The notes below the pieces were generated by a model, which saw only the letters and a list, made by a program, of their open reading frames with translations, had not been told where the DNA came from and searched no databases. Below are positions 1 to 62,587 of a DNA stretch of 64,000 bases, one piece after another. Each line of letters opens with the position of its first letter. The first letter of the stretch is position 1. The DNA is from Escherichia phage LH01. The stretch lies in the sequence record PP434429; one strand, given 5' to 3'. The translations under genes were made by a program, and so were the position numbers.

Positions 1-2214
1 TTATTTGGCCGCTTCCACGGCCTTCATGAATTTAACGATTTGAGCGACCTGTTCTTTGGAAAGAGTACCACGTCGTCCCATGTATTCTGACACAATATGA
101 TAATTGGTTTCAAATTCAATAACCATTTTATCATCATTATCGTAAGCATTATCTTTAAGCTTATCGAAAATTTTAGCACACAATTCTAACTTCCTGTTAA
201 GGTCTCTGTTATCAGCACCTGCGAATCGATTCCATCCCCAGCGATTATTTACTGTTGAGAGTTTTGCAAAGTCTTTACTGATTTCTTTGTTCTTAGAGCT
301 AAAATACTTACTAAGGAAGTTAAGCTCTTCATTACGAGTAATATGATTCAAATAAGGCTGTGCTCTACGACTTGGTGATACATACTCATCATAATCTACT
401 TTATCGATTAGCATAATATAGTCATTAATTGATTTTTCAAACAAACATTCTACTTCACCAAGTTTACGAACTTTCTTAGCAATCTGTGGACGAACTACAG
501 TGAACTCTTTAATACCTGACAAATCAGCAATACGGGTCAAGAAATTGGAGTCATAGTTCAACCAACCTTTATCTGCGTCAAGACATTCAGCATTAGAACG
601 ATTACGAACTATAGCATAACCTTGGATTTCATCAGCTTCACTCGCTGGAATAAAGAGATCTTCCGATACCCAAACATCGTTTTCGTTCTTGAAGAAACGA
701 TGGGCACTCGGCGATTTAGGACGAGGCTCATTAGTCCGTTTCCTGACTTCAATCCATGGCTTAACGATTTGTAAAAGCTCTGAAGTCTTGTACATGTTAA
801 TGTTGTCGCCATCAAAGATAACTTTAAGGCGTTCCAGAAGTTTCATTGCATCTTCGTCTGTAGGGTCAACGAATAGTACGCTTTTACCAAAACCGCGTGG
901 AACTTTACCGGTTAATTTAACCTCGTCTTTAGACATTTCAATCGAATTAAGAGCTCGCATTAATGGAACGCGTCCCTTAACGTCGTCAATAACAATTTCA
1001 ACGTTTTTAATGTTAATGCCAATCAGGCTGTTAATTGAAATAGTTGATGATGAGCTACCACTTTCACGAATACGACGAAGACGAGGGGATTCAACGATAT
1101 CGTATACGACGCCAAGATTACACCATTCGGGCCCCATTTTAAAACGTTTGTACAACTCAGAATAAGTTAGTTGTTCTTTAGAGTATTTCAGTGATTCAAT
1201 ATTAGACCCAGCCTTTTCCATGTATTTACGAGCGGTATAGCCGAGAGAATCAATTTCACGGAATACATGACGCGGGTATTTACAATCAATCCATTTCTTA
1301 GAATCTTCAGCAAATAATTTTGCATCAATTTCTGCAACACGTTTATGGATATTTGCTACTGTACGTTTATCAAATGACAATGCTTCACGAGACGGGGCTA
1401 CATCTAGTTCACCCATAGGGAATTTAATATAAGCTGTAGTGCATCGCGTCATCATCCATGTCTGTTCTTTAATAACACTTCCGATTGGATATACAATACC
1501 ACCATAAACAGCCATGATATTACCACGTTCACCCCATGGAGCTTCCTTGGCTAAATATACATCGTCAAATTCAGGAAAGTATTTGATATCTTTAACACCA
1601 CGAACTTCTGCAATATCGCCGAGAGGACGCATAACATATGCAATTTCGGATGCGAACTTTTCAAAATCTTCCGGGTTAACCGGTACAACTACTTCTACAC
1701 CCGTACGGTCATCAGGACCCATCTTATCTACAAAGGTCGGCTTAATTTGTGGACCTGTGTCATCTTGGTAGATTACGTAACCACGAACTTCACCATTATG
1801 ATAAGACGTAAGGTTAAACGTATCAGTATATGCTAATGGAGCTTTAGAGCCGAGTCCGAATCCACCAATGAAATCGTTACTCGATGTTTTAGTTGAAGCA
1901 AAATATGAGTTATAAATTCCTGGCTCTTCGTCATTACCACGAATAGTGAAATCACTCATACCAGGTCCAAAATCACGAACTACAAAACGTGGGTCTAAAC
2001 GACCTGGAGCCTGAACAATAAACTTATCAGTGCAACCATTAAGAATTTGCCCATCAATACAGTTTGTGATTAATTCACGTACACAAGCCAATTCTTTGTT
2101 TGTATAAAGGTCATTAGACAAAATCTTATAAACTTTACTATTGCCTTGAATAGTAAATGCTGTGCTTTTACCACCAGAACCAATAATCGTTTCTTTAGCC
2201 GTTTCAATAATCAT
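1..2214 (-). CDS. rIIA: rIIA protein (lysis-inhibition/membrane-associated, GHKL-like ATPase N-terminus)
   Basis: 737-aa ORF, ATG at 2214, stop at window position 1-3; N-terminal Bergerat-fold-like motifs; sits directly upstream of the topoisomerase II gene as in T4-like genomes. Confidence 0.8.
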   Translation of the reverse strand: MIIETAKETIIGSGGKSTAFTIQGNSKVYKILSNDLYTNKELACVRELITNCIDGQILNGCTDKFIVQAPGRLDPRFVVRDFGPGMSDFTIRGNDEEPGIYNSYFASTKTSSNDFIGGFGLGSKAPLAYTDTFNLTSYHNGEVRGYVIYQDDTGPQIKPTFVDKMGPDDRTGVEVVVPVNPEDFEKFASEIAYVMRPLGDIAEVRGVKDIKYFPEFDDVYLAKEAPWGERGNIMAVYGGIVYPIGSVIKEQTWMMTRCTTAYIKFPMGELDVAPSREALSFDKRTVANIHKRVAEIDAKLFAEDSKKWIDCKYPRHVFREIDSLGYTARKYMEKAGSNIESLKYSKEQLTYSELYKRFKMGPEWCNLGVVYDIVESPRLRRIRESGSSSSTISINSLIGINIKNVEIVIDDVKGRVPLMRALNSIEMSKDEVKLTGKVPRGFGKSVLFVDPTDEDAMKLLERLKVIFDGDNINMYKTSELLQIVKPWIEVRKRTNEPRPKSPSAHRFFKNENDVWVSEDLFIPASEADEIQGYAIVRNRSNAECLDADKGWLNYDSNFLTRIADLSGIKEFTVVRPQIAKKVRKLGEVECLFEKSINDYIMLIDKVDYDEYVSPSRRAQPYLNHITRNEELNFLSKYFSSKNKEISKDFAKLSTVNNRWGWNRFAGADNRDLNRKLELCAKIFDKLKDNAYDNDDKMVIEFETNYHIVSEYMGRRGTLSKEQVAQIVKFMKAVEAAK

Positions 2215-2226
2215 ATTTTTCTCTCA

Positions 2227-2427
2227 TCACAAGTTACGTTTAAAAATTTCTGCCACTTCGAGAAGTTCTTCTTTAGTAGCTGTATCGGTTTGTATTTTAT
2301 ATCGAATTTCCTTAAAGCGTTCTTTAAAGGCTTCAGCTGATTCGATATCAAAAAATCTTTGGATAAGCCGGAATTCCCGGAGCACTGCTTTATCAAAAAG
2401 TTCCAAGTCCACGTTATATGTTCTCAT
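2227..2427 (-). CDS. small protein at the rIIA.1 position
   Basis: 66-aa ORF with ATG start immediately upstream of rIIA; assignment by synteny only. Confidence 0.45.
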   Translation of the reverse strand: MRTYNVDLELFDKAVLREFRLIQRFFDIESAEAFKERFKEIRYKIQTDTATKEELLEVAEIFKRNL

Positions 2428-2519: not shown

Positions 2520-2840
2520 TTACGCTGTGAAGATTTTATCCCACATCGCAACAACTGCATCTCGGTTATACTTCTTCCATACCGCTTCAGCACGTTTAAC
2601 TCGAGCTTCGTATGTGTCAGTGAATTCTAATACAGCTTTTGTGTAAAGCGCAACTACTTCTTTCTTAGGAGTAGAGGAATCAATTTCTACACGCACAGTA
2701 TCTGGGTCGTATTCGAATGTCGCATGAGGATAATCCTTAAAAACTAACTGGATTACAGGGACACCTTTAGAGATGGCTTCAATAGAACTATTCTCTACCG
2801 TACCTGTGTCAGGACACGTATTGATAAGTGCTTTAGCTGT
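2520..2840 (-). pseudogene. C-terminal glycosyltransferase fragment in alternate frame (continuation of 2795..3619)
   Basis: 106 sense codons ending at TAA 2520-2522 with no ATG/GTG/TTG near the 5' end; encodes ...VENSSIEAISKGVPVIQLVF..., a GT-B C-terminal signature; overlaps the upstream ORF in a different frame over about 2798-2840. Confidence 0.5.
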
Positions 2841-3619
2841 TTAAGACGTTCCATGATTTCACTGTGTGGAGCATCAATAATAACAGGATACTTAGCCGGT
2901 GGTGCCCATTTACTAGGACAGTATCCTACACCATTTTCGCCTAGTGCTTTAATCGCTTCAAGAGCAACATCAGTACGACGCATTTTAGTGTCATAACGTT
3001 GTGCACTAATAATCAGATCAGTCGCCGGAAGAACTTCAGGTTTATCATTCAAACAAATAACCGGATAATCTTCGGCTTCAAACAACGGATTTGCTCGCCA
3101 ATAATCATAATCAATTTTGTCAGTCAGACCTGAAGTCATATAACAATATTTGCGTTCAAATTCACGGAAGGCTTTAGTAGGAGCATAACTCTTACCACCG
3201 TTCTTATGAATTTGAATAGTCTGGTCCCAAATTTGAACAATGCCACGAGACACCGGTTCAAATGGTGTTGCCATAAAATTCTTATGAACTTTAGAGAGAC
3301 CCGCGTCTTTAATTGCCTGAACGGTTAGTTTGGTCGGTTCCATTGTAACAACGAAATCGTACTCATTAATGCCGGCTAGTTCAACAATCTTACGAGCCAT
3401 AGTATAACTCATACCTAGACTGAATTTAGTCAGATGACCAACAGGATGATGATTAACCTTCCAGTCACCAAACGTGTCATTATCAAAGCCGATATAATCA
3501 ATATCAGCACCGATGGACACAAGATATTTCAATACATTTAAATGTACTGCTTCAAGACCACCTTGTACACGTTCTGGGTTAAATGGGACTGCGCGAGATG
3601 GGATAAACATAACTTTCAT
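2795..3619 (-). CDS. glycosyltransferase-like protein, N-terminal portion of a frame-interrupted gene
   Basis: 274-aa ORF, ATG at 3619; Rossmann-like half typical of GT-B enzymes; frame terminates at TAG 2795 while the C-terminal GT motif continues in another frame. Confidence 0.55.
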   Translation of the reverse strand: MKVMFIPSRAVPFNPERVQGGLEAVHLNVLKYLVSIGADIDYIGFDNDTFGDWKVNHHPVGHLTKFSLGMSYTMARKIVELAGINEYDFVVTMEPTKLTVQAIKDAGLSKVHKNFMATPFEPVSRGIVQIWDQTIQIHKNGGKSYAPTKAFREFERKYCYMTSGLTDKIDYDYWRANPLFEAEDYPVICLNDKPEVLPATDLIISAQRYDTKMRRTDVALEAIKALGENGVGYCPSKWAPPAKYPVIIDAPHSEIMERLKQLKHLSIRVLTQVR

Positions 3620-3645
3620 AATTAAGCCTTATTAAAATTAAAATG

Positions 3646-3663
3646 AAGCTCCCGAAGGAGCTT
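3646..3663 (-). terminator. C(UUCG)G tetraloop hairpin at 3' end of topoisomerase gene
   Basis: perfect 7-bp inverted repeat AAGCTCC/GGAGCTT around CGAA (UUCG on the transcript), overlapping the gene 39 stop codon. Confidence 0.4.
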
Positions 3664-5479
3664 AGGACATCCATTCTTTACGAAGTTCTGAATCATCACC
3701 CATCAGCATTTCAAAGAGTTCTTTCCAATTTTCAGGAAGTTTAACTACGTCGTACACAGGGTTCTGAATCATTTCACGATACTCTGACTTTTCAAGGGAG
3801 CCTAATCCCTTGATGTATCGAATACTATGCTTAGGCAGTGTATCTTTAACTTCTTCATACTCAGCTACAGTATAAAACCATTTTTGAGTTTTGCCAATTT
3901 GTGCAATAATTACAGGTGTTTTAACAAAGCGAATACGTCCTTGTTCAAACAATTCAGGCCAATTACTAAAGAAAGCAAGCAAAGCAGGATAAATACTTCC
4001 AAGACCGTCATGATCGGCATCAGTCATAATTGCAATATTACGATAGTTCGTATTCTCTGCCTTTTCACCAAGAATAAGACCCGTGATAGCACAGATATCA
4101 AAGAGCTCTTTGTTCTTCATCATATCAGCATATGACATACCCCAGCTATTCATCACCTTACCACGTAATGGGAATCCGCCGTGTAGTTCACGGTCACGAA
4201 CATCAATGAGATAACCAATTGCCGAATCACCTTCTGTTAAAAACAATGTCGTATCTGCATCTTTACCACATTGGTTAGCTTTAATATGCTTATGAACCTT
4301 AGCTTTAGTTGCCTTTTTAGCTGCTTTAGTTTCTGCAGCCTTTTCTGCCGCCAATTTACGAGCTAATGCTGCTTCAACAATAGGCATAATCAAGGCTTCA
4401 TTTTTAAGAAGTGCCTGAGCAATTTTCTTAGCATCTAATTGGATATGATTACGAATATCACCATACGTTGACGTTAAACGTTCTTTAGTCTGGGAATCAA
4501 AACGCATGTTGCTCATGTCTCTAATAAACATCAACATTGTGAGACATTCTTTAACACGAGCTTTAGTGACTTCAATACCCTTATATTTCTTTTTAATACC
4601 CGGCAAAAGATGTTCGCAGATATCGTCCATTACACATTCAACATGATGTCCACCATTTTTAGTATGGATGTTATTCACATAAGTTAAATGACGGAAGCCA
4701 TCTGGTGATGTTGTGAATGCTATAGAGACTTTATCATTTTCTTGAATGATGTTATCTTCACCAAATTGTTTAGCAAATCGTTTAAAATTACCATCGACCT
4801 TTTTACCATTAAATGTGAACTTGATATCAGGATAAACGACTGCCAATGTTTGAAGTCGGTCTAAAGTAATATCTAAATAAATTTGAGATAAATTATGATC
4901 TTCAAATGAAGTGAAATCAGGAGTGAAGATTACTTTAGTGCCTTTACCTTTAGATTTCTTAGAAGACCATGATTTGTTTTCCATTCCGTTTGAACAGTTA
5001 ACAGTGATTTCATTTTCGCCATCTGACGTGATGCCTGTAAACAACGTAGAGAAGATATTAGTCAAACTACTCCCGACGCCGTTCATACCACCAGTCTTGC
5101 GTTCAGAGTCATCGCCAAAGTTACCACCAGCTTTTGGAATAGTCCAGGCTGCTACAGGACCAGGAATTTGTTCACCTGTTTGGTCGGTAACTAAACCTTG
5201 AGGAATACCACGTCCGTTATCTTCCACCGAAACTTGATTATTTTTAATTTGCACATCAATTTTATTTGCAAACTTAAATGATGTACGAATAGCTTCATCA
5301 ACCGAGTTGTCAATAATCTCATCGATTAATTTAACCAGACCAGGAACATATTCAACTTGTTGATATTTACCAAACAAAAAACGCTCATGTGCTTCTTTAG
5401 CAGAAGAACCAATATACATGCCACTACGTTTCTTAATATGTTCTACATCTGACAGTACCTTAATTTCATTTTTAATCAT
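3662..5479 (-). CDS. 39: DNA topoisomerase II large subunit (GyrB-like ATPase), single continuous ORF
   Basis: 605-aa ORF; GHKL ATPase and GyrB-type motifs (DNGRGIP, GGMNGVGSS); AGGAG RBS before ATG 5479; the size equals T4 gp39 plus gp60. Confidence 0.9.
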   Translation of the reverse strand: MIKNEIKVLSDVEHIKKRSGMYIGSSAKEAHERFLFGKYQQVEYVPGLVKLIDEIIDNSVDEAIRTSFKFANKIDVQIKNNQVSVEDNGRGIPQGLVTDQTGEQIPGPVAAWTIPKAGGNFGDDSERKTGGMNGVGSSLTNIFSTLFTGITSDGENEITVNCSNGMENKSWSSKKSKGKGTKVIFTPDFTSFEDHNLSQIYLDITLDRLQTLAVVYPDIKFTFNGKKVDGNFKRFAKQFGEDNIIQENDKVSIAFTTSPDGFRHLTYVNNIHTKNGGHHVECVMDDICEHLLPGIKKKYKGIEVTKARVKECLTMLMFIRDMSNMRFDSQTKERLTSTYGDIRNHIQLDAKKIAQALLKNEALIMPIVEAALARKLAAEKAAETKAAKKATKAKVHKHIKANQCGKDADTTLFLTEGDSAIGYLIDVRDRELHGGFPLRGKVMNSWGMSYADMMKNKELFDICAITGLILGEKAENTNYRNIAIMTDADHDGLGSIYPALLAFFSNWPELFEQGRIRFVKTPVIIAQIGKTQKWFYTVAEYEEVKDTLPKHSIRYIKGLGSLEKSEYREMIQNPVYDVVKLPENWKELFEMLMGDDSELRKEWMS

Positions 5480-18139: not shown

Positions 18140-18790
18140 TTAACCTCGATTCATAAATGCATTAAATATTTGGTCATCAACAGAAATTTCTAATTCGACT
18201 TCAATTGCTTCAACCTTTTCTTCAGGTGGTAATTCGTATCCACACACTACAATTTTTTCATCGATATCAAAATATACAGAAGCAATACGATTAATGTTAC
18301 TTTCAGTTAAGTCTAAATCAACATCAACATCTTTTTGACCTACACTTAAAGGATAACTAATACGAGTTATTTTATTATCTTTAACAAAGAGTCCACCAAC
18401 ATACTCTGTACTACGTTTGAAGTTTACACGTTTCCGAATTGAAAGATATGATACATCTTTACCGTGAGCTCGGCTCATAGGACATAATGAATAACTAGAA
18501 TAAGAGATGTCAAATCCTACGCCTTCAACATGTGCTAGAGTATCATGAGTAAACCAATTATAGTCGTATGCTAAATCCATTAAATTATAATATGTGAAAG
18601 GCACTGGATTAACATCATATGTTGTACCTTTAAAATCTGCCCAGGCAACAATTTCGTTATCTTTAACAATTACAAAAATTACACCAATATGGTATCCGTT
18701 ATTATTTTCATTCGGCGTTATATTATAACATTGTGCATTAGGAAATTTACCATATTTAAATGGTGCGTTTTTGTGCATATAATAAATCAT
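18140..18790 (-). CDS. hypothetical protein
   Basis: about 216 aa; track ORF starts at GTG 18799, the first ATG is at 18790. Confidence 0.5.
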   Translation of the reverse strand: MIYYMHKNAPFKYGKFPNAQCYNITPNENNNGYHIGVIFVIVKDNEIVAWADFKGTTYDVNPVPFTYYNLMDLAYDYNWFTHDTLAHVEGVGFDISYSSYSLCPMSRAHGKDVSYLSIRKRVNFKRSTEYVGGLFVKDNKITRISYPLSVGQKDVDVDLDLTESNINRIASVYFDIDEKIVVCGYELPPEEKVEAIEVELEISVDDQIFNAFMNRG

Positions 18791-20039: not shown

Positions 20040-20243
20040 TTAGATTTCCTCTTTACGCCAATCGGATTCAAAAACTTTCTTATCATCAACAAATGCTTCA
20101 ACTAAAGCTTTATTTACTTCAGCAAATTGAGAAGTGGCCCGTAGGATTTGGTCTTTATCAGACACGTCCATGGTAACTTCTTTGGTAAACATATTCCCAT
20201 TTTCAAACCAACCAATAAACAACACTTTAGCCATATTTTCCAT
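20040..20243 (-). CDS. Dmd-like antitoxin candidate
   Basis: 67 aa from ATG for MENMAKVLFIGWF...EVNKALVEAFVDDKKV; size, composition and location between 61 and 41 fit T4 Dmd as I recall it. Confidence 0.45.
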   Translation of the reverse strand: MENMAKVLFIGWFENGNMFTKEVTMDVSDKDQILRATSQFAEVNKALVEAFVDDKKVFESDWRKEEI

Positions 20244-20244
20244 T

Positions 20245-20562
20245 TTAGATTTCCTCACAGAAGGCCCATTCAGCGTGATAAACTGTAGCACCTTTAGTAT
20301 CATTCATTTGAACTACGTCTACCGGAGAAATTACTCGATAGAGACGTGGTTCACCTCCATAAGAGCGTGCTGCTCGTCCTGCATAAATCTTTGCTAAACC
20401 GATATCTTCAGTAAAGAATACACGATCCAAGTTTTTCTTACGTCCAGTTTCAGACAGAACTCCTGTTTCTTCAGGAGGACAAAGCATGTTTTCGATGTTA
20501 GCTGAACTACTTGAACCGTGATAAAAAATCTTAAATTCTGCTTTACAATCGATGGTTTTCAT
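20245..20562 (-). CDS. hypothetical protein with HGS/FFT/E motifs
   Basis: 105-aa ORF; FYHGSSS, RVFFTED and YHAEW segments loosely reminiscent of minimal ART/2'-phosphotransferase-type NAD-binding folds. Confidence 0.5.
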   Translation of the reverse strand: MKTIDCKAEFKIFYHGSSSSANIENMLCPPEETGVLSETGRKKNLDRVFFTEDIGLAKIYAGRAARSYGGEPRLYRVISPVDVVQMNDTKGATVYHAEWAFCEEI

Positions 20563-20588
20563 TTTGTTCTCCAGTAGTTGATAGGTCT

Positions 20589-20617
20589 ATAATAACACAA
20601 CTACTGGAGAAGTAAAC
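20589..20617 (-). promoter_or_regulatory. early-type promoter (-35 GTTTAC, -10 TATTAT)
   Basis: minus-strand motif about 27 nt upstream of ATG 20562. Confidence 0.4.
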
Positions 20618-24137: not shown

Positions 24138-24686
24138 TTAACGAGCCCATTTGATGATTTCTGTAATCAAACCATTACGTTCGCTTGCATTAAATCCTAT
24201 AACTTTGTTAGCACCATCATGATTAAGTAATTGATATGTTTGGATTTTGTTATGAATTGCAAACTCTTCAAAATGTGAAATGACTGTATTAAAACCGAAT
24301 GAAGACAAAGTAATAAGGTCGTCTTCAAAACTTTCAGTCATTTCGTTACGTGTTAAAATAATTGTGAACACATCATGGTTTTGGCAAAGACGAACATAGT
24401 CCTGTTCATAAACGTCAAGAACCGAGTCCGCATCTTGTCGAATACGCCCATAAACCCAGTTACTAATATATCCACGGTCTAACAGATAAATCTTAGTAGG
24501 GTCTAAATAATTCAACATCGTTTCGAAACAGCCAACTTCATTTCGAGACTTAACATCGAAACGCCCATCAACTGTTCGTTTAGGGAAATCAATCTTTACA
24601 TATCTTTCACTAATTTCCATTATGTCATTAATGAAAGTTGTTTTACCAGCATTATCTGGGCCGTCTACTAAAATAATTTTAGCCAT
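24138..24686 (-). CDS. P-loop nucleoside-monophosphate kinase, thymidylate-kinase-like
   Basis: 182-aa ORF; Walker A GPDNAGKTT and a DRGYIS segment resembling the TMPK DRY motif; ATG lies 1 nt after the upstream stop. Confidence 0.6.
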   Translation of the reverse strand: MAKIILVDGPDNAGKTTFINDIMEISERYVKIDFPKRTVDGRFDVKSRNEVGCFETMLNYLDPTKIYLLDRGYISNWVYGRIRQDADSVLDVYEQDYVRLCQNHDVFTIILTRNEMTESFEDDLITLSSFGFNTVISHFEEFAIHNKIQTYQLLNHDGANKVIGFNASERNGLITEIIKWAR

Positions 24687-24687
24687 T

Positions 24688-25587
24688 TTATTCCTCGATT
24701 ACGACATCTTCGTATTTAGGTATATTATACGGTGAAGAAATTAAAGCATTAAAGTAGATGAACTCACCAAGACCTGGATGGAATACTTCTTCAGGATTTT
24801 CGAAATATTGAATTTTCGGACGTCCTTTAAGAATTTGATAGTACTCAGTTTTAGTTGGTTTAAAAATTCGAATCAGCGCTTCTTCAGGATACTTATTTCT
24901 GTCGAAGCTATTATTTGGATCGGTTATATAAAGCGGTTGACCTAATTGAATTGCACATTCAACCACTTGTTCAAAACGATAACATGGGTCACTAATTCGA
25001 AATGGATGAAAAATACCATCTAGATGAATAGGAGCCAAATCACCTACAAGACGCTGCATGATGGAAGGACGTATAACTTTCTGAGTTACGATAATCTTAT
25101 TACCATCTGCACCGGCGTTAACCAGCACTTCTTTTTGACGTTCATTCAACACAGTAGTTTGAAGTGAACGATTAACCGACAACATATCGGTTTTTAAGAA
25201 TTCGTCAATATAAAAACGTGGTTTATTAGGGTCTGCCGTGATATTGAAATTGAATTCTACATCAAAAGCGCCGTCATATCCAGTGATATCTGTTATTAGA
25301 AAATCACAATCATAATAAGCAATTAATGAATCAACCACAAATTCATTTTCAGACCAGAAATATTTACGAGTGTTATACGCGTTATCTTTATACCATAATG
25401 GAACAAACTTAAATTCTGGGAAAAGACGTTCACATTCTTTAATATCAGATGCATTACGTGGATATGTAATCACATCACCCGGATTAGCACGGTGCAAATG
25501 AAGTTGGAAGTTGCCATCCTTAAGGATAGCATACTGTCCAGTTTCATAAGACCGCATACTCAAGATAGGTACGCGGAAAATAGCCAT
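24688..25587 (-). CDS. hypothetical protein translationally coupled to gene 42 (candidate DNA-modification enzyme)
   Basis: 299-aa ORF whose ATG overlaps the gene 42 stop (TAATG); occupies the locus where T4 has beta-gt; no recognisable motif. Confidence 0.55.
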   Translation of the reverse strand: MAIFRVPILSMRSYETGQYAILKDGNFQLHLHRANPGDVITYPRNASDIKECERLFPEFKFVPLWYKDNAYNTRKYFWSENEFVVDSLIAYYDCDFLITDITGYDGAFDVEFNFNITADPNKPRFYIDEFLKTDMLSVNRSLQTTVLNERQKEVLVNAGADGNKIIVTQKVIRPSIMQRLVGDLAPIHLDGIFHPFRISDPCYRFEQVVECAIQLGQPLYITDPNNSFDRNKYPEEALIRIFKPTKTEYYQILKGRPKIQYFENPEEVFHPGLGEFIYFNALISSPYNIPKYEDVVIEE

Positions 25588-26303
25588 TAGTCAAGGAATC
25601 CTTTAACATAATCAAAATCACGTTCAAACACATGGGCACTTACCATGGTATGAGTATAATCACCAACTTCTACACCACATTCGTTAGCGATATAATGAAG
25701 TAATTTTCCTTGGAGATAAAAATCCAACTGCATAACAACAGCACAGTTCTGAGAACGCATATGACAGTGGGTATAAAGCTTACCATCACGAATATAATAA
25801 GTTACTGAGTCAGTACATGGATATTCAAGTGTTTCGTCCGAATCAAGCAAAGCCTGATCAGAACTTTCTAGAATTTGGAACACAACTCTTCGGGAGTTAG
25901 GCTTCTCTTTAAGTTCTTTTAGAAGAGCTGGTAATTGGGCCGCAATGCGAGGACCATAGAAAGTGTTGAAGTTCGCCGGCAAAACATCTGATTTTGGTTT
26001 AGAAATAAATTTAGCGACATTAGGATATGCCTTAAACGCTTCTTCTGCGTTGGTACCACCAGAAATCATAAACTTCCAGAAGTCTTCGGCATATTCATAA
26101 GAGATGCGGTTAATACGTGGGTCGGTCATTTTGAATGATGATGGAGTGTCAACAACTACTGTCATAGACCCAATTTCATTACAACGTCCAATACGAGAAT
26201 CAGTTACGAATTCGGGGTTTTCTAAAATTTCACGATTGACTGCTTTAAATGCGGTTTGAAAATCTGCGGCTTTGATATATTTCATTGTGTTATGTTTTCC
26301 CAT
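25587..26303 (-). CDS. 42: dCMP hydroxymethylase (thymidylate-synthase fold)
   Basis: 238-aa ORF; TS-like catalytic region EYPCTDS...HMRSQN with Asp where TS has Asn (QLDFY) by my alignment; position between uvsX and 43. Confidence 0.65.
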   Translation of the reverse strand: MGKHNTMKYIKAADFQTAFKAVNREILENPEFVTDSRIGRCNEIGSMTVVVDTPSSFKMTDPRINRISYEYAEDFWKFMISGGTNAEEAFKAYPNVAKFISKPKSDVLPANFNTFYGPRIAAQLPALLKELKEKPNSRRVVFQILESSDQALLDSDETLEYPCTDSVTYYIRDGKLYTHCHMRSQNCAVVMQLDFYLQGKLLHYIANECGVEVGDYTHTMVSAHVFERDFDYVKGFLD

Positions 26304-26345
26304 GTTTACCTCAATACAATTTATTATATACTCAATTCATAAAGC

Positions 26346-26585
26346 TTATTTGAATTTCTTGGCAATGTTGATATAACGTAAAGCTTCAGAATCTATACTT
26401 CCAAGAACACTATGAAGGAATGCATCAGTGTAGTATTCCAATTGAACAGGTTCTTTAATCACTTTAGCCGCTTTGGTTTCAAACAGGCCCATAAGGGCCT
26501 TTTTAAGAATTTGTTCGTTAGTGTTCAGTTTCATAGTCAAAATCTCTTTGTTAAGTTTATAATTAAAACTTTTTCTAGAAATCAT
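26346..26585 (-). CDS. hypothetical small protein
   Basis: 79-aa ORF from the track. Confidence 0.35.
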   Translation of the reverse strand: MISRKSFNYKLNKEILTMKLNTNEQILKKALMGLFETKAAKVIKEPVQLEYYTDAFLHSVLGSIDSEALRYINIAKKFK

Positions 26586-27751
26586 TCCGGGTACCTCAAA
26601 GCGTCATCAGAGTTAGTTATATCAATAATAGATATGGAGTTTTCTGCTAACCCGTTTTTAGATAATTGACGTTTATAATACCTTTCACAATATGTACACG
26701 TTGACCCACAGATTTCATTAGCACAATCAAAATCTGGATGTCTGAACCACCTTTTTTCTAAAAAGCCATCTAACAAAGAGGTTTCAATATTTACTGTATG
26801 TGAAAACTCAGTCTCATTTTCAAGAGTGAAAATAGTCTCTAAAGGCTTCCACAGTTCTAACAAATTACCTTCAAACTTTTCAGAAGCGTATGCTTCAAGA
26901 ACTTTCAAAATGTAGTCTGTGCTACCTGTACGTCCTGAAACTTTGAATTGAGTGATACCAATATCATTATAAAGTTTCAAATCTTGAGGACGAACAAAAC
27001 GAGTTCTCAACCAGTTAAATGGGTCTGTATCACGAGCTTTAATGCAGTGTTGCATTGGATATCCATTTAAGGATTTAGCATCATCAGCTGTAACATCAGT
27101 ACTATGGAAAATATAGCAAGAGTCACGATAACTGCAATGTGTTGTATACCCTTTACCAGCATTAGAACAGAACTCATTTACAAGAACTTCAAATATTATA
27201 TTGTTCTTATTGCAAAACTCTGCTGCACGCTTCAGGAAAGAAACTGAACGGTTCTTATGAATTCCACAGCAGACCTTTTTGATATTGTATTGGTCATGTA
27301 AGTATTTTATTTGAGTTACAGCATCGACATGTAGAATTGTTGAAACTTCAATCTCAATGTCTTTATTGACTTCACGAACAATTTCCATAACAACAGGGTT
27401 AGCGATAGTAATACGCCATACGCCTATTGACCAAAGATACTGAACATAATCCTGAATAGCTTTCTTCTTCCACTCGACTAGTTCTCTTTTTGAACCAGGA
27501 TTTATCGTGTTGAGTGTATAGTTAAAGCAAATACCTAATTCGTTACAACGTTTAACGTAATCTTCTAACATCTTTTTGTCAACGTCAGGAAGCCTAAAAT
27601 CAGGTCTGGCTGCTACAAAAGCCATTTCTCTTGTAGAGCCGTATACTTCGTTTATCAAGCTGTTAGGATAAGTTTTATTGAGCTCTACGATTTTATCAAG
27701 AAGAGCTAAATCAAAATTCGTTCCGATTTTAAAAGTATTCATTTTTTGCAT
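26582..27751 (-). CDS. Cys-rich protein of unknown function (candidate modification enzyme)
   Basis: 389-aa ORF; C-terminal CGSTCTYC (CxxxCxxC) plus further conserved-looking Cys; no confident family call. Confidence 0.55.
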   Translation of the reverse strand: MQKMNTFKIGTNFDLALLDKIVELNKTYPNSLINEVYGSTREMAFVAARPDFRLPDVDKKMLEDYVKRCNELGICFNYTLNTINPGSKRELVEWKKKAIQDYVQYLWSIGVWRITIANPVVMEIVREVNKDIEIEVSTILHVDAVTQIKYLHDQYNIKKVCCGIHKNRSVSFLKRAAEFCNKNNIIFEVLVNEFCSNAGKGYTTHCSYRDSCYIFHSTDVTADDAKSLNGYPMQHCIKARDTDPFNWLRTRFVRPQDLKLYNDIGITQFKVSGRTGSTDYILKVLEAYASEKFEGNLLELWKPLETIFTLENETEFSHTVNIETSLLDGFLEKRWFRHPDFDCANEICGSTCTYCERYYKRQLSKNGLAENSISIIDITNSDDALRYPE

Positions 27752-27797
27752 CTCGCGTTAATTGATGCGATGGTTTTTGCAGGTCTTACTTAAATTA

Positions 27798-28184
27798 TTA
27801 TAGATTCGGTTTATATGATTTAAATGTTTCGAATTCGCCTTTATTCATAAGAGCTTTGAATTCGTCAGGACGCATAGCTTTGTCGTCGATAATCCAATCA
27901 TATACTGGTTTATGTGTTAGCAAATTATGGTACTTCAAGCCAATGTTTGCCAAGTTCTGAATCAGACTTGGGAGAATGTCAATTGCTATACGACCAGGAC
28001 CTACTGACTTCATACCACGAGCAGTGTAAAGCGTTATGGTATGCCCTGCATCATACAGGGCATTAATGGCAGACACCATTTCGACGTCTGGTTTGAAGTT
28101 CACGTAATCACGATTGTTATTCCACTCTGTTATACAATCATCGACATCAAAACAAAGATTAAGCATGTTTTCTACACGGTGCAT
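27798..28184 (-). CDS. HAD-superfamily phosphatase (small, KdsC-like size)
   Basis: start at ATG for MHRVENMLNLCFDVDDCIT (HAD motif I DxDx[T/C]); later LYTARG and DWIIDDKA motifs; ATG overlaps the upstream stop. Confidence 0.6.
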   Translation of the reverse strand: MHRVENMLNLCFDVDDCITEWNNNRDYVNFKPDVEMVSAINALYDAGHTITLYTARGMKSVGPGRIAIDILPSLIQNLANIGLKYHNLLTHKPVYDWIIDDKAMRPDEFKALMNKGEFETFKSYKPNL

Positions 28185-29869
28185 TAGATTCGTTCCCATT
28201 GATGAGTGATATCGCCACCGATTGGACGATAGGAAACACCAGTTTCTTTATCAGTTAGTACCCATTTACCAGGATTTTTTGTAATCAGAGTAGCCGTTAC
28301 AGGTTCTGCTACGTCATAACTAATAGAGCCGTCTTGAAGTACACGGCCCATGTTGCGTAATTGCTTAGTCAGAAGTTCCATACCTTTATAATATGCGGCT
28401 ACCGCTTTAAGTGGATTATTCTTGAAATAACCACCTAATGCAATCCAGATAATTGCCACCGCCAAATGATGATACTCGTTAAACGAACTCATCTTTCCAT
28501 ATTTGTAAATTAATGGATTGATGTTAATAGTCACATTACAAGTTGTTTCATCAATAGTAAACTGTCCCCAGGTCGGATTAGCATTGAATTCATCATAACC
28601 TGAAACGGCATAAAGCACTTTAGCTTCATCATACAATTTTGGCCCGTAAATCTTGGTTTCGCCAAAATATCCACGAGGGTCGATAAACTTGACTTCGCCG
28701 TTATCAGTAATCATAGTATTACTGAAGTTCGGGTCACCATGAATAACAGAGTACTGTCCCTGAGAACGATTATGATAACGAATAAGGTGTTCTAAAGCTT
28801 GTTTCAGCATTGGCTTCAGACGTCCAATCTTAGTGTAGTTCACATGTGTGATTTTACCAAATGAATCAATCAATGGTTGAATACTTTCACAACGATCAAT
28901 AACTTTCGTATAGAATTCTTTAGTGAAATCACGACGAACAGTTTCAGGACTTACAAAATACGTGTCTGTGCTGAATTTCAGTGCATCTAAAATTGCATCA
29001 ACAATTTGTGGACGAGCAAGACTTGATTTGGATTTAATATATTCAAATGCCGGCTTACCTTTAATGCGTTCCATTTCAAAGTTATTTTCATTAACAGAAA
29101 CTAACTGAGGAACTGAATCTGATTTCACTTTCAAATACCACGAAATCTCATCTTTCTGAAGAGCTCGTCCCTGTTCGGTTAATGCGAATTTAGTTACAGT
29201 TTCTTCACCAATTTCAACTGCATTAAAACTACGATTAAGTTCACGAACTTCATGAGCTTTTTCAAGTTTAGGCATATCACCTAAATCAATTAGATTCATA
29301 AGCTCTGATTTATTGAATGCGCCGCTGTAAAGGAATTCTACGAAATCACGTCCTTTGCAGTATTCATGAATTTCCTCATCGGTAGAACCCATATAGAATT
29401 CCCAGTCTTTGAACTGATAAATTCCTACAACATTACCACCTGTTGAACCTACGTTAGTGATATTTTCACCGTCGAAATTATACCGACATTCGTCACCCTT
29501 AACATAGATTGCGTTAACATTCCAAGACCATGAACCAAAATCAGGAATAATATCACACCAGTTAACAATTACATTATGGCCATCTAAATCTTTGTGTAAT
29601 TTAGCAAGAGCATAAGCAGAACCATACGCTTCATCAACTGTACGAATAGTCACATTGAACCCTTCTTGCTCACAATAAGCTCGAACAGTTTCAGCAAATT
29701 TTGAATGAACTACTACAATAATTTCATCTGCGCCAAGGTCAGAATAAATTGTATACAAATTGCTCAGAATAGTGTCTTGTTTATAGTTAACAAGCACCTT
29801 AGGAATATGATGCGTTATTGGATACAAACGAGTTGCCAGTCCAGCACCAAGAATAACAGCTTTTTTCAT
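28184..29869 (-). CDS. bifunctional sugar-1-phosphate nucleotidyltransferase / sugar kinase (APH-ChoK-like)
   Basis: 561-aa ORF; N-terminus ILGAGLATRLYPIT...PKVLV (NTP-transferase signature); C-terminus VIHGDPNFSNTMI...FIDPRGYFG (Brenner HGD-N and DFG-like motifs of APH/choline-kinase fold). Confidence 0.75.
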   Translation of the reverse strand: MKKAVILGAGLATRLYPITHHIPKVLVNYKQDTILSNLYTIYSDLGADEIIVVVHSKFAETVRAYCEQEGFNVTIRTVDEAYGSAYALAKLHKDLDGHNVIVNWCDIIPDFGSWSWNVNAIYVKGDECRYNFDGENITNVGSTGGNVVGIYQFKDWEFYMGSTDEEIHEYCKGRDFVEFLYSGAFNKSELMNLIDLGDMPKLEKAHEVRELNRSFNAVEIGEETVTKFALTEQGRALQKDEISWYLKVKSDSVPQLVSVNENNFEMERIKGKPAFEYIKSKSSLARPQIVDAILDALKFSTDTYFVSPETVRRDFTKEFYTKVIDRCESIQPLIDSFGKITHVNYTKIGRLKPMLKQALEHLIRYHNRSQGQYSVIHGDPNFSNTMITDNGEVKFIDPRGYFGETKIYGPKLYDEAKVLYAVSGYDEFNANPTWGQFTIDETTCNVTININPLIYKYGKMSSFNEYHHLAVAIIWIALGGYFKNNPLKAVAAYYKGMELLTKQLRNMGRVLQDGSISYDVAEPVTATLITKNPGKWVLTDKETGVSYRPIGGDITHQWERI

Positions 29870-29910
29870 GTTGTGGTCCTCATTGGTAAGTAGGAGTATT
29901 GTACACTATT

Positions 29911-30054
29911 CTAGTTAAAGCATTCATACTTTGCTTGTAGTCCAATCATAGTCCATCCGATTATAAGAGTCGGAATCATTACTGGAGCCGTTAAGCTCCA
30001 GTAGATAGTCATGACAAGCATCAATAGTAAAAGTCCTATTGTTATTGCTTTCAT
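29911..30054 (-). CDS. small membrane protein
   Basis: 47-aa ORF below the track threshold (MKAITIGLLLLMLVMTIYW...); ATG overlaps the SIS gene stop (ATGA). Confidence 0.35.
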   Translation of the reverse strand: MKAITIGLLLLMLVMTIYWSLTAPVMIPTLIIGWTMIGLQAKYECFN

Positions 30055-30686
30055 TGCTCGCCTCGTAACATGGCACCTAGTGCACCGCCTGGATGGAACT
30101 TAAGGAAATCATTAGAGGTAAATCCACGTTCAGACGAAAGGTTGATAGCAAAAGTATCGATAAGCGCTAACAATAATGTAGTGGACATAGTCGGAGCCAG
30201 AGAATTCTCATCAACCTCTACTGCGATGCCTGTACAGAACGTATAATCAAAAAGAGCTTCGTATTCTTGTGGAATGTCTGGGTTACAATGCAACAGAATC
30301 TGTTTGACGTTCGGACGAATCATTTTAAGATGCTTAGCCACGCCTATCATTTCTTCAGTTTTACCAGAACGACTAATATGAATCAACACATCATTAGGCG
30401 CAATGAATCCTGCATCACCGTGAGAATAATGCCCAGTGTTCAAGTACATACTCGGGATACCGAGTGAAGCAAATGTCTCAGAAGCTTTAGTTGCAATATT
30501 AGCATTCTTACCAACACCTGTAATAATTACTCGGCTTTCATAATTACTAAGTCCAGGGCGTCGAAGAGTTTCTAGAATAGCATTATAACGAGCAGGGTTT
30601 TGACTAATTACTTTGGCCATAGCGGCCAAAGAAGAAGCTTGTTTTATGATTGCGTCAATAGCGATATTAATAGGAGTAGTTTTCAT
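30051..30686 (-). CDS. SIS-domain sugar-phosphate isomerase, KdsD/GutQ-type (single domain)
   Basis: 211-aa ORF; ITGVGKNANIATKA...HGDAG...ISRSGKTEE...APTMSTT...HPGGALG matches the arabinose-5-phosphate isomerase SIS pattern; no CBS domains. Confidence 0.75.
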   Translation of the reverse strand: MKTTPINIAIDAIIKQASSLAAMAKVISQNPARYNAILETLRRPGLSNYESRVIITGVGKNANIATKASETFASLGIPSMYLNTGHYSHGDAGFIAPNDVLIHISRSGKTEEMIGVAKHLKMIRPNVKQILLHCNPDIPQEYEALFDYTFCTGIAVEVDENSLAPTMSTTLLLALIDTFAINLSSERGFTSNDFLKFHPGGALGAMLRGEQ

Positions 30687-48619: not shown

Positions 48620-48920
48620 AATAATCTCTTCCCATTTCCATATCAATTAATTCATTTATTGAAGGTTCATCATAACACGTTTCTTCGTCGTTGTAAACTG
48701 TTTCAACGTCTGGCTCGACAGTCTCCCATCGAGCGACATACCATGGCTTAACCGCGGAGCTTATTGAGCTCTTCATAATCAACCCAGGATTCTAGCCCAG
48801 ATGGCAAATCAGATTCAATTTCCCAAAGAAGCTCTTCAATTTTCTGAAGACGATCTAATTCTTCAACAGGAATAGTAACCATTGATGGAGCTCTTGCTGC
48901 ACTAATATCGTAAATCATAT

Positions 48921-49136
48921 TTACCCCAGTTTAACCATGCAATCGCCGTATTTCCATTTAGAAATAGACTTTTCGCCATTAGAATAATAAACTTCGAGTT
49001 TAGCACGATTATTTTTAATTTGAATAACCTTGGATGTCATCAAAGTTCCATACCCATAGTAAACTGCAACTTCATCACCTACATATACCGCGTTTCCACG
49101 GTAGTCGTGGATATAATCAGTTCCTTCAAGCATCAT
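48921..49136 (-). CDS. hypothetical small protein
   Basis: 71-aa ORF from the track. Confidence 0.4.
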   Translation of the reverse strand: MMLEGTDYIHDYRGNAVYVGDEVAVYYGYGTLMTSKVIQIKNNRAKLEVYYSNGEKSISKWKYGDCMVKLG

Positions 49137-62342: not shown

Positions 62343-62587
62343 TAGTATTTTTCCTCTGGTTGAAATACCGCACGACAAGCCCACATACTAGCTTCCTTTA
62401 GGCGTTCTTTAGCACAGTTCAATTGGGACAAAGCTGTCAAAGCTTCAGGAGTATTCGCAGACAACGCTTCTTCCGCCAAGGCATCGAAAATAAGCCCTAA
62501 TCGAACTTCTGCATCTTTAATAGCGTTCACTTTACCGATTTTATCATCGGTATGCGGCTTGTAGCCTTTGATGTCTTCAATCGACAT
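62342..62587 (-). CDS. hypothetical small protein
   Basis: track ORF trimmed to internal ATG (MSIEDIKG); overlaps a neighbour, weak. Confidence 0.3.

Follow-up and report, generated by a model that had tools for sequence, protein, structure and literature searches.

In the deposited genome of Escherichia phage LH01, a glycosyltransferase gene beside rIIA is broken by the loss of a single A. We analysed a window of 64,000 nucleotides of this genome, in which the gene appears as two reading frames; that these are halves of one gene is beyond doubt, the agreement being far beyond chance. Judged by sequence, the locus is the ortholog of RB69 ORF003c/gp3, present either as a pseudogene or as a mis-sequenced copy. 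Of the two, we slightly favour a genuine strain-specific mutation of very recent date over an error in the record, giving it about an even chance. Programmed frameshifting and a two-gene arrangement are both very unlikely.

LH01 (169,367 bp) is a Mosigvirus, an RB69-like T-even phage. The transferase locus (Table 1) is flanked by rIIA/rIIA.1 (1..2427) and by a fused gene 60+39 topoisomerase subunit (3662..5479). The frame A product consists of 259 native residues and, following ...MERLK, 15 out-of-frame residues (QLKHLSIRVLTQVR) ahead of the TAG; it covers the N-terminal Rossmann domain but, of the C-terminal domain, no more than the first half. In GenBank it is lh_004 (WWS22714.1), annotated 'hypothetical protein', and the adjoining gp39 and rIIA products were traced to LH01 as well. 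Relative to frame A, frame B lies in the -1 register; it is closed just upstream by a TAA at 2843-2841 and encodes native residues 261-366, among them SSIEAISKGVPVI, although as written this stretch would not be read in frame. When the repaired 366-aa protein was compared with the window by tblastn, residues 1-265 matched in one frame with 98.9% identity and residues 261-366 in the other with 100% identity (E = 0 for each). The same type of search found no second, compensating copy of the transferase in the 64-kb window (tblastn, E <= 10).

Table 1. Coordinates of the transferase locus and associated features in the LH01 window
Feature	Position	Strand	Remarks
Transferase locus, whole	2520..3619	-	1100 nt in LH01, 1101 nt in relatives
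Frame A ORF, 274 aa	2795..3619	-	ATG 3619 to TAG 2797-2795
Frame B open stretch, 106 codons	2523..2840	-	From ACA 2840 onward; TAA at 2522-2520
Sole frame B ORF having a start codon, 58 aa	2520..2696	-	GTG 2696
Lesion site	2840..2842	-	A3 run in LH01, A4 in all inspected relatives
Terminator-like hairpin	3646..3663	-	Between gene 39 stop and transferase start; context only
First DNA arabinosyltransferase (proposed), ortholog of RB69 gp46:47, intact	24688..25587	-	Positions match LF82-41 and Shf125875 CDSs
Arabinosylation cluster, intact	about 24138..30686		Contains 24688..25587; roles from PMC13326640

Upstream of the locus, the topoisomerase II large subunit (3662-5479, minus strand) is a single 605-aa product of the fused 60+39 gene, as in RB69; neither a gene 60 split in the manner of T4 nor a translational bypass is therefore present beside the transferase. 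The terminator-like hairpin, a GC hairpin followed by a T-run, sits immediately past the stop of gene 39, with 27 nt separating it from the transferase start codon. It was the only such hairpin found, against 1.0 expected, and is not significant alone; some related records have a terminator annotated in this neighbourhood.

Alignment with pEB20, RB69 and 308Ecol101PP places the lesion exactly. At 2842-2840 the relatives read CTTAAAACAG and LH01 reads CTTAAACAG, one A having been lost; in the longer context the difference is still a single gap, between CGTCTTAAAACAGCTAAAGC in the relatives and CGTCTTAAACAGCTAAAGC in LH01, and it falls at codons Lys259/Thr260. The deletion is seen also against Shf125875 and LF82-41. 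Putting the missing A back yields ...MERLKTAKALINTCPDTGTVENSSIEA... and the 366-aa ORF. The original prediction, made from the sequence of this stretch, had described two frames separated by a single-base event, the second of them a 106-codon C-terminal half with a donor-binding motif. Both frames, their coordinates and the motif-bearing half were recovered on the minus strand, as was the overlap between the frames (about 2840-2798), and the event can now be pinned to the one A lost. Because the lesion is placed exactly, the overlap is to be seen as a by-product of where the next stops fall and not as a designed shift zone. Loss from an A-run is the classic replication-slippage frameshift, and A-run contractions are typical of the spontaneous frameshifts known in T-even phages from rII genetics.

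The identity of the gene follows from its intact counterparts. RB69 (NC_004928) has 2520..3620 annotated as one CDS, ORF003c, of 366 aa, and one 1101-nt ORF is likewise found in pEB20, 308Ecol101PP, Shf125875, LF82-41 and JK45. The position between rIIA.1 and gene 39 is conserved, and the arabinosylation cluster is present too. Over its full length the repaired LH01 protein is 98.6% identical to the RB69 ortholog, with which it shares map position and, once repaired, length, and 97.5% identical to that of HY126, a Mosigvirus-type phage in which the gene is a single in-frame piece. The LH01 copy as written differs from both in not being one intact ORF of about 366 codons: minus one A, it stops at 274 aa, of which only the first 259 residues are native.

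Both the gene and the structure of its product have been described before. Across the whole 366 residues, the repaired protein is 98% identical to PDB entries 9IQZ and 9IR0, which carry the Foldseek label 'phage HY126 glycosyltransferase' (9IR0 '... with UDP', 9IQZ being the apo form); the solved chain of 9IQZ is titled 'Glycosyltransferase subfamily 4-like N-terminal domain-containing protein'. These structures are said to come from the work of He et al. (reportedly in Nat Chem Biol, 2026) on cytosine hydroxylation and arabinofuranosylation in phages. Thomas et al. 2018 (PMC6024577) were the first to propose ORF003c, with a GT-B fold, as the enzyme that arabinosylates RB69 DNA; they relied on HHpred to detect the fold and aligned Glu281 with the conserved ribose-binding Glu of T4 alpha-gt; in LH01 the Glu281 region falls downstream of the frameshift. 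RB69 cytosines carry two sugars, as beta-D-Araf-(1-3)-alpha-D-Araf-5-hydroxy-dC, and gp46:47 has been assigned as the first transferase, with gp3 (ORF003c) as 'beta-arabinosyltransferase 2' (PMC13326640). Transfer of the second arabinose to 5-hydroxycytosine in DNA has been proposed for this Mosigvirus gene (PMC13326640, PMC13390438), and we extend that proposed role to the LH01 gene by orthology; for RB69 gp3 itself the biochemical role is still a proposal. Besides the first transferase, the cluster in LH01 has a thymidylate-synthase-like 5-hydroxy-dCMP synthase, a U32-like protein, an NTP-transferase/kinase and a SIS-domain isomerase.

The transferase has a GT-B fold (GT4-like), with two Rossmann-like domains. 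A Foldseek search with a model of a 99%-identical ortholog (P0001) returned 9ir0/9iqz at E of about 1e-49, followed by PimA, BshA, WaaG, PglA and further enzymes of the GT-B type, with E from 1e-8 to 1e-5. The query model, built with AlphaFold2 from a five-sequence alignment, is poor (pLDDT 58), so the assignment of the fold rests mainly on the solved, near-identical structure; we used the model for a rough map of secondary structure. The family is too diverged for curated sequence models: the repaired protein matched nothing in Pfam-A at E <= 1, Glycos_transf_1 and Glyco_trans_4 included, and its only match among PHROGs was phrog_8302, function not known. A profile HMM of five homologs found the HY126 chain alone in the PDB, with no HMMER similarity detectable to other PDB chains, the T4 glucosyltransferases included. 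The alpha- and beta-glucosyltransferases of T4 are nonetheless the functional parallel, being post-replicative GT-B transferases that use a UDP-sugar to decorate a modified cytosine against host nucleases; the acceptor is 5-hydroxymethylcytosine there and arabinosyl-5-hydroxycytosine here, and the sugar and the genomic location differ as well. The original prediction that this was a GT-B glycosyltransferase is borne out by the Foldseek result together with the identity to the HY126 structures, and its suggestion of a second DNA sugar transferase was right, in that it matches the gene proposed for that role in Mosigvirus (PMC13326640, PMC13390438).

The break lies inside the C-terminal Rossmann domain, after the helix at 252-260 and before the strand at 262-268 of the secondary-structure map, and not at a domain boundary. 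In a comparison of Escherichia and Acinetobacter phage homologs, which are 42% identical, the most conserved segment falls in frame B (AKxLxNTCxxTGTVENxSxEAISxGxPVxQL...HATFEYDP), where A262, K263, N267-C269, T272-N277, E281-S284, G286, P288-V289 and H299-P306 are invariant. From its donor-binding Rossmann domain the 274-aa product (31 kDa, against about 42 kDa at full length) has lost three strands and the closing helices, and with them this most conserved motif. The half of the C-terminal domain that binds the donor is missing, as are the helices at the C-terminus, so the stump should be inactive.

Three explanations had been offered for the two frames: a programmed frameshift, a strain-specific pseudogene and a sequencing error. 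The second and third still stand. The first shares with known programmed -1 frameshifts (E. coli dnaX, the phage tail chaperone G/GT) only its geometry, a -1 frame with a short overlap; LH01 has none of the slippery heptamer, the stimulator or the split conserved among relatives. A search of the overlap in the zero frame (2860 to 2795) found no heptamer of the form X XXY YYZ. Folds computed for 79-146 nt of downstream RNA were no more stable than dinucleotide-preserving shuffles (z = -1.73, -1.05 and 0.07), so that neither the slippery site nor the stimulatory structure that had been suggested as signs of recoding was seen. The suggested comparison with orthologs gave single intact ORFs among those inspected, and the two-frame layout is not conserved. 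With no heptamer, no significant structure and no conservation, a programmed -1 frameshift was rejected. Transcriptional slippage was also rejected, an A3 run being too short.

A leaky or regulated gene, in which a -1 slip in the overlap yields some full-length or near-native enzyme, we regard as highly improbable. Single-tRNA slippage of tRNA-Lys could occur, for example, at CUA-AAG (2836-2831) or at AAA-C (2842-2839), and the trans-frame peptide would be ...MERLKQLKALINTCPD or ...MERLKTAKALINT. A-AAG, which stands isolated and is the sole such element, is a shift-prone motif for E. coli tRNA-Lys, as in dnaX-type slippage; frame B is in the required -1 register, and a -1 slip at A-AAG would leave a product two residues off wild type (QL for TA). 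However, the heptamer for tandem slippage is absent, no Shine-Dalgarno-like stimulator is visible upstream, and the downstream structure does not rise above the shuffled controls. The arrangement also occurs in one genome only, with single-frame genes in the inspected relatives, and the shift site is thus without evolutionary conservation. At best there would be an unprogrammed leak, which from general knowledge is expected to be low.

The remaining possibility of this kind, two separately expressed polypeptides that assemble into an active enzyme, has a negligible probability in our estimate. GT-B enzymes do have two domains, and the diverged homolog of Acinetobacter phage Acj9 lies in two ORFs (PMC6024577), but the LH01 break is within the C-terminal Rossmann domain instead of between domains, and the HY126 ortholog was crystallised as a single chain. 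Orthologs with two independently initiated genes had been named as one finding that would overturn the idea of a broken gene. Frame B offers no ATG, GTG or TTG until 2696, downstream of the invariant TGTVEN..EAIS..G.PV (in our ORF listing, starts were taken at the first of these codons after a stop). With its first start past the conserved donor-binding residues, an independent C-terminal gene was rejected.

Among the records inspected, the deleted allele is seen in LH01 only. Megablast returned 163 phage records, nearly all Mosigvirus, at 90-99% identity, and the best 40 of these all span 1302 nt against the 1301-nt query. A 55-mer across the junction matched 104 records, none at 99% identity or better, and 60 of 60 among the matches listed span 56 nt. 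By tblastn, 155 records have the protein at 90% identity or more; in a spread sample of these matches, 43 of the 44 Mosigvirus-type records carry it as a single in-frame piece, the exception being JK45. None of the relatives inspected from the approximately 155 Mosigvirus records has the deletion, and other breaks were met only in two poor or duplicated records. The mutant 23-mer had no matches in IMG/VR or in JGI metagenome contigs, with three occurrences in IMG/VR for the wild-type 24-mer, and complete E. coli genomes gave no match whatever to the junction 55-mer. Looking up the exact 274-aa protein led to the NCBI record only, with no independent assembly of LH01, and our literature search found no paper on the phage. 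In a phage collection without LH01, the closest match over 25 kb was 97.8%. Selection on the gene is strongly purifying (pN/pS about 0-0.2). Frame B differs from most relatives by synonymous changes only, as a recent loss would leave it.

The two exceptional records have their own peculiarities. In Shigella phage JK45 (NC_054940.1), 2520..4123 holds an intact copy (3023..4123) and then a 411-nt duplicate of the 3' end (2520..2930), which the record lists as a hypothetical protein of its own; either part of the gene is duplicated in tandem or the assembly is at fault. In vB_EcoP_EP32B (OR544955.1), the transferase at 137729..138813 is split elsewhere, into ORFs of 196 aa and 154 aa. Fragmentation affects many further genes in the record (156.7 kb), among them tail fibres, dCTPase and soc, and points to an assembly of low quality. 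The rIIA proteins of EP32B and LH01 are identical.

Whether the phage itself lacks the A is decided less easily. A deposited consensus that dropped one A, from a phage having AAAA and an intact 366-aa transferase, is a serious contender to which we give a little under an even chance. It is a homopolymer contraction in otherwise perfectly conserved surroundings, with the frame B protein 100% identical to relatives, and one-base homopolymer deletions are the commonest type of sequencing and assembly error. The allele is seen nowhere else, while the inspected relatives, records of adequate quality, have an intact gene on which purifying selection acts, so that a true knockout would be unusual. 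There are precedents: the splits of RB69 gp46/47 and gp52/53, single genes of the arabinosylation pathway that the deposited genome shows as two ORFs each, were attributed to sequencing errors (PMC13326640), whereas for LH01 the choice is between mutation and error. The EP32B transferase, split in a generally fragmented assembly, is another.

Against an error of the record stands the quality of the rest of the window. A scan for indels across all of it found the transferase deletion to be the sole frame-breaking coding indel common to comparisons with Shf125875 and LF82-41. Gene by gene, over about 125 genes in the 64 kb, the transferase is the one annotated gene broken against both references. 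More traces would be expected from a platform prone to errors, and a run of four A is short for a platform error. One length difference in a long homopolymer was seen in the window, A7 against A8, and it is intergenic. With one broken gene across 64 kb the consensus looks clean and the assembly not error-prone. The absence of secondary decay fits an artefact as well as a very recent mutation.

The same comparisons turned up other differences. Shf125875 (KM407600.1) has single-base T-run indels relative to LH01 and LF82-41 at about 18262-18300 and 20155-20604, which shorten 61.2 and alter the ORF adjoining dmd. LH01 is thus not the only Mosigvirus record with singleton indels that affect a reading frame. 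At 62455-62464, in a small vs.4-like ORF, LH01 has a net in-frame deletion of 21 nt relative to both references. A stretch of about 245 nt (48888-49132) aligns to neither reference; it is a variable part of the gene 49.x / nrdC region, and LF82-41 has about 530 nt in its place.

If the deletion is a real mutation, as we slightly favour, one A would have been lost by replication slippage from the four-A run, very recently and in the stock that was sequenced. The ribosome would then read 259 native codons, 15 nonsense codons and the TAG, leaving a presumably inactive stump of 274 aa; the shift would not be programmed, nor the downstream half separately expressed. Such a loss is probably tolerable, as a deletion of an arabinosyltransferase (Aat) of Mosigvirus Bas46 gives a phage that is viable but sensitive to a defence system, according to a passage of PMC13216743 that quotes Mahler et al. 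2025. Since LH01 retains an intact first transferase and UDP-arabinose pathway, the 5-hydroxycytosine of its DNA would be mono-arabinosylated rather than di-arabinosylated; in phage NP and RB69 the mono- and di-arabinosyl forms stand at about 1:4. That prediction follows from the loss of the second transferase in a pathway (PMC13326640) that is otherwise intact.

Whether a lesion found once or an artefact, the interruption opens no new mechanistic question. Entry lh_004 (WWS22714.1) represents neither a new short protein nor a case of recoding, and should be relabelled as a frameshifted DNA arabinosyltransferase, or else corrected. More speculatively, and in our estimate improbably, LH01 would be a true knockout of the second arabinosyltransferase, arisen in nature or selected in the laboratory, whose DNA has mono-arabinosyl-5-hydroxycytosine only, selected perhaps by a defence that recognises the di-arabinosylated base, and possibly making a trace of near-native enzyme by a -1 slip at CUA-AAG. 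Were this true, LH01 would be a ready-made isogenic tool for studying the purpose of the second sugar. Given a real deletion, the phage would be a spontaneous mutant in which mono- and di-arabinosylation may be compared for their effect against restriction, CRISPR-Cas and modification-dependent nucleases.
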